A stretch of DNA of 64,000 nt from Naegleria gruberi (GCA_000004985.1 GG738881.1); one strand, 5' to 3'. Positions 53,386 to 60,358 are shown, counted from the stretch's first letter. Notes: generated from the letters alone by a model not told the origin. Made by a program: numbers and translations.

Positions 53386-54876
53386 CTAGTTAATATCACT
53401 AATTCTCTTGGGTATCATTTGTGTAATGTCCATATCTCCTACATTATATCTCGGCTTTTCCAATGTAATTTCTGCCAATTTTTCATTCTCTGCAAAGAAG
53501 GGAACAAAGCCAGTGCCTGATAGCTCAACTCCTGCAATGTGAAAAGATCGATCGAATGCCTTCAATAATCTGTAATCTTGCTTTCCTGCATCAAGTTCAA
53601 AATATCCCAATCCGTTAAGCCAATGACAAAAATCATTCACTTCACTTCTCTTATCAAATTCAATGAGTTCCATTGCAGAATACTTTGAAACTGGAGAGTG
53701 TGAAACAATATCTTTCAATTCCTTTGTGTAATGATAGACTCTTCCTTTTCCTTTCTTGATATCCTTCAAATAGCCTTGAATAGCTGCATTCTTTTCCATT
53801 CTCATTGAGATTGATTTTAAAATTCTCGAAACGAAATGTTGGCAATTACACAGCAAGGGATTATAATTTTTCGTTCCATTGAACAAGCAACAGATCGAAG
53901 CTATCGATTTGAATGCCTCCATTATATCTCTACTATCATTCAGCATGCCCAAATCAATCACTGCAATGGCATTTGTTGTAATAAACTTATTCCTAACAGA
54001 AACAAGTGAATCATTGTACCAATCCAATTGCCACTGTCCAATTATCAAACCAACATGGAATATTCCAAAAGTAGCAGGTATCAGTGTCCCAGCAATACCA
54101 ATCTTCTTATTAATTTGATTTCCAATCTCTGAAATGACCAACTTTACAGACATTCCAGCAGGAGTTTCCAAAGATCTTCTCTCTGGAGTGTGTCTAATTG
54201 GGAGGTAGAAATTTTCATACAAGAATCGATCTTCACAAACCCAATTCTGTACTTCAGCCACAATTTTAGCTTCCTCCAATTTTTTAGCACAAAATTCAAC
54301 TGCTTTCTTTTCCTTTTTAGTTAACATTTCATCTGAGAATAATTGTAAATGATCTTGAGAGAGGGATTCCCAGTCAACTTGTTTTGCAATAATGGAATGG
54401 CTTGGGTTGAGGGAAGTTTCTAATTTGGAATATGGTGTTTCTTTCAAATTCTTGGAACGTTCATAATCTCTATTGATCTTGGCAATTATTACTCTATCAA
54501 AGAATATATTTAATTCATCATCGGAAACTTGAACTTCTTCGTATTCTTTTAATAATTTACGACATTGCTTGATGATTCTCTTTCTTTCACACGAAACTTC
54601 TGTCTGATCATTTCTATGTATCGATTGATGCAAAGATTTAAATTTTAAACCACCAAATATCAAATTCGTAGAGTTTAGTATGGTTTCGAACCTTTCGAAT
54701 AAATCCTGTGGAACCTCCAAATATTTCATTAGAATTATAAAATCACCATGAGTATATTGATAGATGGGAGTTTCAACTATTCGCAATACTTCTGCCTGTT
54801 GTTTATTGCTAGAGTTGGGCGTTGATGATTTACTGTTGGTTGTTACCTTGGATGCTTTTGACTTGCCTGCTCCCAT
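53386..54876 (-). CDS. N-myristoylated PPPDE/NlpC-P60-superfamily (permuted papain-fold) putative peptidase, paralog A, about 496 aa
   Basis: Start at MGAGKSKAS, a Src-like myristoylation signal; the ORF-finder start lies upstream in a non-coding-looking region. Putative catalytic His FGIFHVGLIIGQW and Cys YNPLLCNCQHFVSRIL (PPPDE NCNHF / LRAT NCEHF). Conserved C-terminal CHWLNGLGYFE...DYRLLKAFDRSFH. Confidence 0.55.
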   Translation of the reverse strand: MGAGKSKASKVTTNSKSSTPNSSNKQQAEVLRIVETPIYQYTHGDFIILMKYLEVPQDLFERFETILNSTNLIFGGLKFKSLHQSIHRNDQTEVSCERKRIIKQCRKLLKEYEEVQVSDDELNIFFDRVIIAKINRDYERSKNLKETPYSKLETSLNPSHSIIAKQVDWESLSQDHLQLFSDEMLTKKEKKAVEFCAKKLEEAKIVAEVQNWVCEDRFLYENFYLPIRHTPERRSLETPAGMSVKLVISEIGNQINKKIGIAGTLIPATFGIFHVGLIIGQWQLDWYNDSLVSVRNKFITTNAIAVIDLGMLNDSRDIMEAFKSIASICCLFNGTKNYNPLLCNCQHFVSRILKSISMRMEKNAAIQGYLKDIKKGKGRVYHYTKELKDIVSHSPVSKYSAMELIEFDKRSEVNDFCHWLNGLGYFELDAGKQDYRLLKAFDRSFHIAGVELSGTGFVPFFAENEKLAEITLEKPRYNVGDMDITQMIPKRISDIN

Positions 54877-55452
54877 GGTTTCGAATACTGCTTTATTTTT
54901 TACCGTTTCGCATAATGTTAATCTTGTGAAAAGAGACAAGTGCCAGCAAATAACATTATGAAATTTACAATAAAGGAAGAAAACATGAAGACAGAACCTC
55001 TTCAGTATCATCACTGATGAAGTAGCCGAAAGTCTCTAATTTCTAATATTGGAATTTTCATTAATATTCCTCTAGTGCAATAAATATTTCCAAATCCAAA
55101 TCTATTTGATGAGAAATTTGCGAAGAAACTCTTTCCGTCTCCATCATGCTTTGTGAAGAAACCAATTCATCATCACTTCTTTCCATCATGATGTATTTAT
55201 TATTATTAAACAATAATAAAAAACATTCGGGTGATGTTGATGAACGAAAAATATATTTCCCTCTCTCGCATTCTTTAACCCTAACACCACATATGAACCA
55301 TATTATAGAATGATAATATTCAAACAATCATACGCTCAGGGTGAATAATTTTCCTTCCCAAATCTTCCTCAGTTAGTATTGTATTTTTATTTTTTTTTAA
55401 AATTGAAAATCGTAACGGCTATTTGATGAACTTCAAACCAAATTAAAAAGAA

Positions 55453-56927
55453 ATGCCTCGAATTCTTAGCTTCCGTGAGGTGATCAGGAATGATATCGAT
55501 TATGCCTACCATTCCAGCACGACCTTCATCGATACAACCTACAGAAAATCGAATAAATTCATCTCCGATGGCGTTAAACAATTGAAAAACAATTGGAAGA
55601 TGAGAAAGCAAAATAGAGCAGAGAAGGAAATTCATCAGAAAACAAAGGCTTTCGAAAGCGAAAAGTATGCTGAAAAGTTGAGAAAGACAATGCCTAGTTA
55701 TGAAGGTTATGATCCGTATGCTAACTTGGGAGCTGGAGAAAGAATTCCTCATGATGCCTTAGTTTTTGTGCAGAAATCAATTATTGAGTTTTATAGGAAG
55801 GAGTTTGAAAAGTCACTTGATGATTTAAAGATTGCAAAGGTTTTGGATTTTAAATTGGATAATGTTTATTTGTATCATTACTTGGTTGGATATATGAGAT
55901 TTTTGAATGGAAAGTTTGCTAAGTCAATTGAGAGTTATAAGAGAGCTATTGAGTTGATGGATAATGTAGCGTTGGATGATTCAGAGTTGATTGGTTCTGT
56001 AGAAAAAGCAATTGTTGAAATAGAAGACAAGATGAAGCATACCTATGACAAGATCATGGACTATTTCAGTAAGGAGAAATCTACAAAGAAAGAATCGATT
56101 GTTAGCAGGGAAGAGCTTCACTATTGTATTGGTGTGTCATATTTTAGTGTTTCTTATTATAGGGATGCTATTAATCACCTCTCTGAGGCCATTTCTAGTA
56201 TGGAACTCTTGGAAAGAAATCAGGATCTTGATACTTTACTTCATCTTGCTTATTATTATAGAGGATATTCCAATTTTGGTAGTCATTCATTCACAACTGC
56301 TATCGAGGATTTTACAAAGAGTTTAGAGTTCAACAATCAAGACGAGAGAGCTAAACTAATGTTGAATAATTCAATGCAGAGAATGGGAGAAGAGCCAAAT
56401 CAAATTTGCCTTGCACCACCACCAACTGCGTTCCACTATAGATTGTTGAATGAGGAAATAATGGGTCATATCTTTAGCTATTTGAGAATTCACAGCCTTA
56501 GGACTCTCTCAATGACCTGTAAATATTGGAAAATTTTATCCATGAAGAGTTTACTTGATAGAGATTTGTGCATTTTACAATATGAGGAGTTTGTTAAGGA
56601 TCCTGACAATACTTTGAAATATGCAAATGAAAGTTCACTTACGGAAAAGCTCTTCATGCCAAAAAAATACCAATGTGAAATCTACACATTAATATATTAT
56701 GTATTGGAATCACCATTTTTCAAACACTACAAGAAGAAACAACGTGATATACATGTCATGTTTCCAAATTTTATTTGTGCTGTTGGTGGTGCTAATAGTT
56801 ATGTTTCGTACTTTTTTGGAAATTGTAAGAAATTGTACCTTTCCTGCATTACGTTTACTTCTATTTCCTACTATTATAATTCTTTTACTGAAAAGAAATA
56901 TCCAGTTGAGGAATTATTCATCATCAA
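55453..56927 (+). CDS. TPR-like plus F-box-like protein, exon 1
   Basis: ATG at 55453. TPR-like helical repeats (AYYYRGYSNFGSHSFTTAIEDFTKSLEFN). F-box-like IMGHIFSYLRIHSLRTLSMTCKYWKIL. Donor ATCAA|GTAAGT at the end of the ORF. Confidence 0.55.
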
Positions 56928-56969
56928 GTAAGTTATCTCACCACACAATTCATACCCAATTTATTCAAG

Positions 56970-57261
56970 TCATACTAACTTCCAATTTGAGGAGAAGCAA
57001 TTTGCTTTTTTTAATACTTATCCAAATTTGAAACACGTTGCATTTGATATCAGGTCTCAAGATATTAAGCGAGATTTGTATAATCCATATTCTGTTAAGC
57101 TCTCACAAACAATAGATACATTCGAATACAGTGAATCATGTGAAGATTATATGAGAACTTTTGTTATTCCATTTAACTCACACATAACTTTCATAGCCTT
57201 TGAGAAAGGTAGAAAGGTTCCTCTTCCTTCGCCTTTTCTTGAAGAGTACCAAAGTTATTGA
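56970..57261 (+). CDS. TPR/F-box protein, putative exon 2
   Basis: The only AG acceptor that restores the frame is TTATTCAAG|T (42-nt intron 56928-56969), joining ...ELFII-N-HTNFQFEEKQFAFFNTYPNLKHVAFD.... ORF 57028-57261 may instead be an unrelated small ORF. Confidence 0.35.
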
Positions 57262-57722
57262 ATACTCAAACGAAAATGTGTACGTTGTAATTGGTAAAAA
57301 GTAAAAAGGAAGTGGGAGCAATCAAGCACTTTCAGCACTTGATTAGACAGCAACCACCCTTATTCCACTTCCCCGAAAAGATCCGGTTATTGCAGCATGG
57401 TTACTCATGTATCGTTAGCATATTCTGGCGAGTTGAAGAGAAACGTGATTGGAAATAAGAAACTTGTGGTTTTAAAAATAAAATTTTAGAAATATCCATT
57501 CTGGAATGGACTTGTGTTGAATGGACACGCACAGAATGAGGCAACACAATGTTATTCATGTTTAAACTCTGTTAGTCCATAGGTTTTGGACTATTATCAA
57601 ACCGAAATTGAGTGGAAAAGATTGAAAGAGCTATTGATGAGAATGATTATATAAACGGTTCACGATTAGAGCAATATCTTTGAAATTGTAATAAATTCTC
57701 TGGTAATTTACAGTACCATTAT

Positions 57723-59309
57723 TTACAAATCACTCAAGGTATCATTTTCTGAAATTGTACTCGTTCCATCGGTTGCACTACCTGTTCCAGTATTGAGAAA
57801 ACATCTCTCTGGAACCAATTGAGCCAATTCCAAATTCTTCACATTGTAAGTTGGCTTATCGAGTGTAATTTCTGAAATCTTATCCTTGGCAAAGAATGAA
57901 ACATATTTGATTCCATTTTCTTCGTATTCATCGGCTACCCACATTCCCAAAGTGTCATCTCTGTTCATGTGAAAAGATCTATCAAATGCTTTCAAAAGTC
58001 TGTAATCTTCCATTCCAGAAACTGAATCAAAATAATTTAAACCATTCAACCAGTGACAAAACTGATCGAGTTGAATTCTTGTTTCGAATTTGATTTTTGA
58101 AAGTGAGGCATACTTTTCATGATGCACATTATTCACTTTGATCAGTTGTTTCAACTCAGATGTATAATGATAAATTCTTCCTTCCTTTCCCTTCTTGATA
58201 TCTTTCAGATATCTAACAATTGATTTGTTTTTTGGTAAACCAACTTGTATGACCTTCAGTAAAAGGGAAACAAAATGTTGGCAATTACACTTGAATTTGT
58301 CATAGATTTTCGAACCATTGAATTCGCAACAAATCTCAGAAATGTCTTCAAACGCAGCCATGATAGAATTTACGTTTGTCAATGGTTCCAAATCAATAAC
58401 AGCAATGCAACCTTTAGATTGAAATACCTTTTCAGTTGCTCTTCTCACTTTCACCACCGAATGAACATCCCAATCAAATTTCCACTCTCCAACAATCAAA
58501 GAAACATGAAAAATTCCAAACGGAAACAAATTACCCAATTGACCCATTTTTCTATTCGGTCTTTCCTCAATTTCTGTAATCACCAACTTGACAGGCATGT
58601 AAGCATCAGATTGAGGATTCACTCTACTCGTATTATATCTAATAGGAAGATAGAAGGTCTCATATAAAAACCTATCTTTACACACCATGTTCTGAATCAT
58701 TTTTCTAAATTCATTCAAAACAGCTTGATGCATTCCTTCACTTTCATTCTTTAATTCTCTTTCTGGTTCTTGTAATTTTTTACAACAATTATCAAAATAT
58801 TGACATTCTTCTTCTGTTAATCGATCCATTTCGAATAATTCCAAATGATCTTTTGACATTTCAAGTTCTTTAACTCTGCCAGCACTCAAAACTCTTGAAC
58901 CATTAATGTCATATTTCGAATATATTGTAGGATGTTTGTAATTTTTAGTTCTTTCAATGTCCATGTTAATTTTTTCAATTACCACATGATCAAGAAAATT
59001 TTCCAAATCTTGTTTCGTCAATTCAATTCCCATTTCTATTGTCTTTCGAATAATTTTATCTTTTTTACGTTGGATAGAGTATGAATTTCTTCGGAGGATG
59101 GCAACAAATAAACTTTCAAAGTAAGAACCATGTAATTCGTATTTAGAAAATGCTTGACTAAACATTTCTTCCTTTTCAAAATTTAAATATTTCATTAGTG
59201 TGATGAAATCCGAATGTTTGTAGAGGTGAATAGGTTTAGAATCCACGGCTAACTGTTGTGATGGAGTTTCGTCTTGTTTCTTGTTGCTGGCGGATAGTTT
59301 CAAGCCCAT
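57723..59309 (-). CDS. N-myristoylated PPPDE/NlpC-P60-superfamily putative peptidase, paralog B, about 528 aa
   Basis: Start at MGLKLSAS (myristoylation signal). Collinear with paralog A: PIHLYKHSDFITLMKYL, FGIFHVSLIVGEW (His), KFKCNCQHFVSLLLK (Cys), YLKDIKKGK, CHWLNGLNYFD...DYRLLKAFDRSFH. Confidence 0.55.
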   Translation of the reverse strand: MGLKLSASNKKQDETPSQQLAVDSKPIHLYKHSDFITLMKYLNFEKEEMFSQAFSKYELHGSYFESLFVAILRRNSYSIQRKKDKIIRKTIEMGIELTKQDLENFLDHVVIEKINMDIERTKNYKHPTIYSKYDINGSRVLSAGRVKELEMSKDHLELFEMDRLTEEECQYFDNCCKKLQEPERELKNESEGMHQAVLNEFRKMIQNMVCKDRFLYETFYLPIRYNTSRVNPQSDAYMPVKLVITEIEERPNRKMGQLGNLFPFGIFHVSLIVGEWKFDWDVHSVVKVRRATEKVFQSKGCIAVIDLEPLTNVNSIMAAFEDISEICCEFNGSKIYDKFKCNCQHFVSLLLKVIQVGLPKNKSIVRYLKDIKKGKEGRIYHYTSELKQLIKVNNVHHEKYASLSKIKFETRIQLDQFCHWLNGLNYFDSVSGMEDYRLLKAFDRSFHMNRDDTLGMWVADEYEENGIKYVSFFAKDKISEITLDKPTYNVKNLELAQLVPERCFLNTGTGSATDGTSTISENDTLSDL

Positions 59310-60358
59310 ATCTTGTGGTTTCGTTCTGATTTTTTTGTGAGTTTTGTGAAAGTTGACATTGGCTAAAAGTAAGAAAAGCATTAGGGCACATTATGCTATT
59401 TAAAATGGTGCCCTTGAATAAACTTGTATCACTGTACCACCTTCTAATAATTTCGAATTGGAAAGAAGACGAATGTTTCCAATTAACAAATTAAAAATTC
59501 AGTTCAGTTATTTCATATTGTAATGTACAACAATAAGAAACCAATTTACTTTTGTTAATCTCAATCTGCAAAGTTGTTAATTACTTCCACTTTTGTTTAC
59601 TTCCATTTATAACAATCTAATTCCCGCCAACAAAATTAAAAAATATATTAAATTAAAAAATGTTGACTTGATCGGAAAGATATGTATCACAAACATGTGT
59701 GATAAATTAAAAACGAAAAGTGTTCGGGATGGTCCATTAATATCGGATGTATTAGCGTGAACCATGTTCGAGCGATCATTTAAAACATGTTTGTTCAAAT
59801 CATTCAATTTGCAATAACGAGAGGATGATTGAAATGAACGTGGTGCACCCGAGGAAGAAGCGAGAGAATCCAACACACCATTACGGCCGTTATCTTGACA
59901 TTTTTATTATCGACAAACGTTACATGAACATTTGTCAATTTACCAACAAATAAGAACGCAACAAAATGTAAAGAGAAGGAGAGCCACTTTATGCTTTGTA
60001 AATATTATTTGTGCTATTTTTGTAGTGTCTGATAATTCTCAATGGTTAGAACAACCCTTAATAGTGTTCATCTCTGACCAAAACAAATTATCAATTGATT
60101 CATCAATTGTTTTTTCAGCGACAGTATAGACACCCTATTTTAGAGTCTTAGCAGATATGGTTATTAATTTGGTGAGGAGGAATTGGAGAGGAACTCTTGG
60201 AGATAGAGTTTGTTGTGTCAGTATCATATTATTCTATGAACTTTCAAGCAATCCGTCATCGATAGGTAAGGCAATCTTGAGAGACTTTTTGAGGGTATTT
60301 CCACTTGCTCACAACTTCATACACACAGAGACTAAAAAGACTCAAAATAACAAACAAA

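Follow-up and report, generated by a model that had tools for sequence, protein, structure and literature searches.

Understanding of the PPPDE/DeSI enzymes is poor, and there is no agreement on their true substrates, with weak deSUMOylase or deubiquitinase (DUB) activity being set against S-depalmitoylase activity. Their His-Tyr-Cys triad has been described, as has S-depalmitoylase activity of CLN5, PPPDE1 and PPPDE2 (PMC9012467), and plant DeSI3a provides a precedent for a membrane-bound DeSI enzyme (PMC6759571). We analyzed a stretch of 64,000 nucleotides from Naegleria gruberi (the window), which contains two paralogous genes, A and B, that are predicted to encode divergent relatives of these enzymes (Table 1).

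Table 1. Features of the A/B locus, in positions of the window
Feature	Position	Strand	Description
Gene A	53386..54876	-	Intronless ORF including stop codon, 496 aa, begins MGAGKSKA
A residues 1-8, MGAGKSKA	54853..54876	-	Predicted N-myristoylation signal (Gly2, Ser6, Lys7)
A residues 32-84, divergent SAM-like domain (N-terminal half)	54625..54783	-	Predicted by HHalign against paralog SAM domains
A residues 232-373, PPPDE (Peptidase C97-like) catalytic core	53758..54183	-	Predicted beta-barrel strands, then helix with Cys at its N-terminus
A His274, predicted general base of dyad	54055..54057	-	Aligns with His of DeSI-1 GIWHTS strand, chain position 38
A Tyr338, predicted third polar residue of His-Tyr-Cys center	53863..53865	-	Aligns with Tyr of DeSI-1 EAYNLFEHNC
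A Cys345, predicted nucleophile, motif N-C-Q-H-F	53842..53844	-	Aligns with Cys of DeSI-1 HNCNTF, chain position 108
A residues 374-448, family-specific alpha/beta C-terminal extension	53533..53757	-	Motifs G376, I-x-F407, CHWLNGLGYF, LLKAFDRSF
TPR + F-box-like gene, 492 aa	55453..56931	+	F-box at ~56446-56574; neighbor, outside the proposed system
Gene B	57723..59309	-	Intronless, 528-aa paralog, architecture as in A, begins MGLKLSAS
B residues 21-69, SAM-like block	59103..59249	-	Aligned with A residues 32-84
B residues 229-371, PPPDE core	58197..58625	-	Family domain HMM match, E 8e-74
B His268	58506-58508	-	From family domain HMM match
B Tyr336	58302-58304	-	From family domain HMM match
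B Cys343	58281-58283	-	From family domain HMM match
B residues 372-451, C-terminal extension	57957..58196	-	From A/B alignment and family HMM

A and B were the only copies of the family within the window. As the initial annotation had reported, they are open reading frames (ORFs) in the same orientation; both lie on the minus strand, with 4433 bp between their starts. Its description of collinear paralogs with roughly 40-50% identity was also correct: BLASTP aligned the two proteins collinearly over nearly their full length at 42% identity (217/511; E 2e-125), far above chance, and a neighbor-joining tree placed them as sister sequences. The motifs it quoted were found (PIYQYTHGDFIILMKYL / PIHLYKHSDFITLMKYL and FGIFHVGLIIGQW / FGIFHVSLIVGEW), and CNCQHFVS and CHWLNGLxYF...DYRLLKAFDRSFH were each present in both A and B. 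Over its full length, A was homologous to B and to proteins of heteroloboseans. A protein called independently in ENA (P0001) was reported as 100% identical to A, a rounded value for two sequences that are not letter-for-letter identical, and the extended ORF of B (57723-59381) was identical to an N. gruberi predicted protein at NCBI (P0002). The DNA similarity between A and B (64%) was confined to the coding sequence, DNA comparison found nothing in common between their flanks, and the F-box gene between them was likewise not duplicated. The pair had therefore been described too strongly as segmentally duplicated; A and B go back to a single gene that was duplicated locally long ago.

In A, the MG start is followed in turn by the SAM-like domain, helical linker, PPPDE core and C-terminal extension. 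Neither A nor B matched PF05903 at E<=1 or reached its Pfam gathering threshold of 29.2 bits. The close homologs P0003 and P0006 scored 19.8 bits (E 7.5e-4) and 15.7 bits, 24 of 40 family domains matched PF05903 at E<=0.1 (best, 9.7e-6), and the best full-length member reached 4e-11. The family profile retrieved 2wp7 (E 0.012) and 3ebq (E 0.12) from the PDB, marginal E-values by themselves, and in its alignment to 2wp7 the His, Tyr and Cys of the family fell on His38, Tyr101 and Cys108 (chain count). DeSI-1 and DeSI-2 were the best matches of the family in both sequence and structure. The predicted fold is the circularly permuted papain-like (NlpC/P60) fold of PPPDE proteins, with the His on a beta-barrel-like sheet and the Cys at a helix N-terminus (helix 115-125 of the domain model for Cys345 of A), and the residues follow the PPPDE order His...Tyr...Cys within G-x-x-H and N-C-x-x-F motifs. 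Profiles, paralogs and predicted structure thus assign A and B to a divergent PPPDE subfamily, linked to PF05903 via intermediate sequences.

The catalytic residues were highly conserved. Among 133 family representatives with an overall identity of 20-40%, the His was kept in 129, the Tyr in 133 and the Cys in 126, and Asn344 and Phe348 (A numbering) were present in all 133. Seven representatives (P0014, P0023, P0075, P0088, P0094, P0124 and P0144) lacked the His and/or the Cys, four of them having lost both. The earlier proposal that the His and Cys motifs form a catalytic pair was supported by the DeSI-1 alignment and by this pattern, in which the two residues are retained almost throughout and tend to vanish together. 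With hundreds of diverged members that retain the His-Tyr-Cys center, the family offers a natural experiment.

The C-terminal module for which the initial annotation gave no function is an ~80-aa extension of the PPPDE core. Its conservation equaled that of the active site, and nothing matching it was found in Pfam or among PDB sequences. The N-terminal block PIYxYTHGDFIxLMKYL corresponds to the SAM-like region of A and, by profile comparison, is probably a divergent SAM domain, which had been missed. When 14 aligned N-terminal sequences were compared by HHalign with the SAM domains present in paralogs of the family, the probability was 94.7% (E 5.8e-8) over 47 columns, which span just the domain's first half. 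Pfam-significant SAM domains were found at the collinear position in P0030 (SAM_2, E 3e-10) and P0063, and the full-length AF2 model contained helices across the region (pLDDT 77-82). A and B had no direct Pfam SAM match (PF00536 / PF07647), and the A-type N-terminal profile found no SAM match among PDB sequences.

We examined the N-termini with a rule-of-thumb criterion for substrates of N-myristoyltransferase (NMT): Met1-Gly2, a residue at position 3 that is not charged, aromatic or Pro, and at position 6 one of the small residues Ser, Thr, Ala, Gly, Cys and Asn. Both A (MGAGKSK) and B (MGLKLSA) fit this pattern. The consensus MG(A/L)xKS proposed earlier fits A but not B, which reads MGLKLS; Ser is at position 6 in both. 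M1 and G2 were invariant in eight of eight close homologs, and Trp, which is unfavorable for NMT, occupied position 6 in two close homologs. Among the collected family sequences, 157 started with Met; of these, 57 had an MG start and 38 matched the pattern MG[^DEPFWYRK]xx[STAGCN]. In-frame ATGs lie upstream of the MG in both genes, at 55011 in A and 59381 in B, and several out-of-frame ATGs occur upstream of A. Because of the ATG at 55011, the MG start of A is inferred rather than proven. The start context of A is aaccATGG, and the MG of B at 59309 is the conserved start in the family alignment; the conserved MG stands first in the alignment, and this, together with its better Kozak-like context, favors the MG start. 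NCBI models B as a 552-aa protein from the upstream ATG, translation from which would abolish myristoylation. A and B are predicted, from sequence, to be N-myristoylated and membrane located.

The wider family comprised 770 clusters at 50% identity. All members with an organism name were heterolobosean, none being listed under a non-heterolobosean name, and the family was present in N. fowleri; it could therefore merit attention as an enzyme class specific to this lineage. SAM domains occurred in ~35 of the 168 collected family sequences, and PH, PX, C2 and protein kinase modules were also found. No UBA, UIM, UBX or ubiquitin domain was detected in the 157 family proteins scanned. UniProt automatically labels some paralogs "PPPDE domain-containing protein," and our literature searches found no paper on the family. 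The view that the domain combination looks undescribed consequently stands for the C-terminal extension, but not for the PPPDE domain, already named in UniProt, or for the N-terminal block, a probable SAM domain. For proteins listed as "predicted proteins," the analysis provides a defined architecture.

We propose that A and B are probably active, membrane-recruited PPPDE-type Cys-His hydrolases that operate independently of the F-box gene, a judgment that leaves aside the choice of substrate. In this architecture, a Gly2 myristoylation signal would be followed by a divergent SAM domain, a helical linker and a PPPDE-type (MEROPS C97, DeSI-like) circularly permuted papain-fold domain, with the ~80-aa extension packed on the catalytic domain. 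The N-myristate would tether the protein to the cytosolic membrane face, PH, PX or C2 modules would replace it in paralogs, and the SAM domain may mediate self-association or partner binding. At the helix N-terminus, Cys345 (Cys343 in B) would be deprotonated by His274 (His268 in B) of the adjacent beta-strand, with Tyr338 and Asn344 as polar and oxyanion partners. The Cys would then attack the acyl-bond carbonyl of a membrane-proximal substrate, yielding a thioester acyl-enzyme that would be released by water.

The substrate may be a fatty-acyl thioester or a lipid acyl group, by the S-deacylase/transacylase chemistry of which CLN5 and PPPDE1/2 are reported examples, a choice to which we give somewhat less than an even chance. 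We lean toward it because the accessory devices of the family are all membrane directed and none is ubiquitin directed, a preference drawn purely from the logic of domain association. The membrane devices (myristoyl, PH, PX and C2), the SAM domain, the lack of a ubiquitin-binding module in the scanned members and the new extension together argue for a PPPDE branch acting on membrane-associated acyl substrates.

With the enzyme and its anchoring unchanged, A and B could instead be DeSI-type isopeptidases that act, independently of the F-box gene, on membrane-proximal conjugates of SUMO, ubiquitin or another UBL. We consider this plausible without thinking it probable, and rate it a little below acyl chemistry. 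DeSI-1 and DeSI-2 are the top sequence and structure matches, DeSI3a is a precedent at the plasma membrane, and the kinase and SAM fusions are compatible with a signaling role. However, accessory domains that bind Ub/UBL were absent from the 157 proteins scanned, DeSI proteins have no conserved C-terminal extension, and PPPDE1 and PPPDE2 reportedly cleave palmitoyl thioesters more actively than isopeptide bonds (PMC9012467).

The initial annotation had joined membrane-tethered deSUMOylating/deubiquitinating isopeptidases and the TPR/F-box (SCF adaptor-like) gene into a lineage-specific ubiquitin-like-modifier module, which now appears very improbable. The TPR and F-box domains are real: Pfam confirmed such a gene on the opposite strand between A and B, with TPR_2 (43.3 bits), F-box-like (30.1 bits, E 4e-7) and F-box (23.9 bits) above threshold. 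PPPDE/DeSI, the nearest family, has reported deSUMOylase and DUB activities, and membrane-bound DeSI3a deSUMOylates FLS2 (PMC6759571). The F-box gene is arranged tail-to-tail with B and head-to-head with A, with a 577-bp common upstream region that makes co-regulation possible. However, apart from a copy with 97% identity in an ENA contig, no homolog of the F-box protein was detected, so a conserved linkage cannot exist. Nor did the arrangement recur at the three loci checked, in N. lovaniensis, Willaertia and a Logan contig, where a single family gene was present and tblastn found no match to the F-box protein in flanks of up to 10 kb. Gene adjacency in eukaryotes is weak evidence for common function, and we know of no operons in Naegleria. 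The absence of ubiquitin-related accessory domains from the scanned family proteins also argues against a module, as does the DeSI isopeptidase activity, which has been called weak (PMC9012467). We therefore treat the F-box gene as a fortuitous neighbor, without support as a partner.

It is very improbable that A and B are LRAT/PLAAT (H-RAS-like suppressor) phospholipid acyltransferases/phospholipases instead of PPPDE proteins. Their NCQHFV motif is similar to the PLAAT/LRAT motif NCEHFV, and there were weak Pfam LRAT matches, at E 0.38 and 0.88 for A and B, 0.028 for the isolated domain and, in a few paralogs, 5.4e-5 at best. The match of the family to LRAT/PLAAT (PF04970; PDB 7zot) was nevertheless weaker than that to PPPDE on every measure: among 40 domain sequences, 24 matched PF05903 and 5 matched LRAT, with better E-values for PF05903. 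The second His of the PLAAT His-His-Cys triad, ~12 residues past the first, is missing in A and B, and an invariant Trp occupies its place in close homologs. LRAT/PLAAT proteins have a C-terminal transmembrane helix, none of which was apparent from the sequence of A and B, with their predicted N-terminal lipid anchor. Membership in PF04970, taken as a profile match together with the His-His-Cys triad, was rejected.

That A and B are catalytically dead scaffolds (pseudoenzymes) using the PPPDE fold for binding only is the least credible reading, since, although the seven members without His and/or Cys indicate that non-catalytic members exist, His, Tyr, Asn-Cys, Gln and Phe are all kept in A and B, and residue conservation of 95-100% in such divergent representatives indicates selection for catalysis.

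Active, membrane-recruited hydrolases remain our preferred reading for A and B. A broader and more speculative view, which we consider rather unlikely in its entirety, is that Heterolobosea, including the pathogen N. fowleri, possess a lineage-specific, hundreds-strong, lipid-/phosphoinositide-anchored PPPDE family in which the ~80-aa extension would be regulatory or substrate binding. This family would form a membrane-proximal de-modification system (S-deacylation or UBL removal from membrane proteins) with an architecture that has no counterpart elsewhere, and A and B would be a pair of its members that diverged recently.

Among known systems, TseH, a type VI effector cysteine hydrolase of Vibrio cholerae (PDB 6v98; PF25218), is a secreted bacterial toxin, unlike A and B, and we know of no biological parallel between them. 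CLN5 (PDB 6r99), a PPPDE-like lysosomal cysteine S-depalmitoylase, is a precedent for PPPDE-type centers acting on fatty-acyl thioesters (PMC9012467). It is secreted, lysosomal and glycosylated, whereas A and B are predicted to be lipid anchored at the cytosolic face; its extra subdomains are not demonstrably homologous to theirs, and its similarity is below that of DeSI-1. Arabidopsis DeSI3a, a PPPDE enzyme that acts at the plasma membrane on the signaling protein FLS2, is a functional analog of the proposed tethering (PMC6759571), but has neither a SAM domain nor a C-terminal extension, according to its description in the cited review. DeSI-1 and DeSI-2 (PPPDE2 and PPPDE1; PF05903, Peptidase_C97; PDB 2wp7 and 3ebq) share with A and B the catalytic order His, Tyr, Cys, and their G-x-x-H-T and Y-x(5)-N-C-x-x-F motifs align with the family; identity is only 14-17%. 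DeSI proteins are single-domain proteins of ~170 aa, whereas A and B reach ~500 aa, begin with MG, have in addition a SAM-like domain, helical linker and strongly conserved extension without known relative, and belong to a family that has expanded to hundreds of clusters, its named members all from Heterolobosea.

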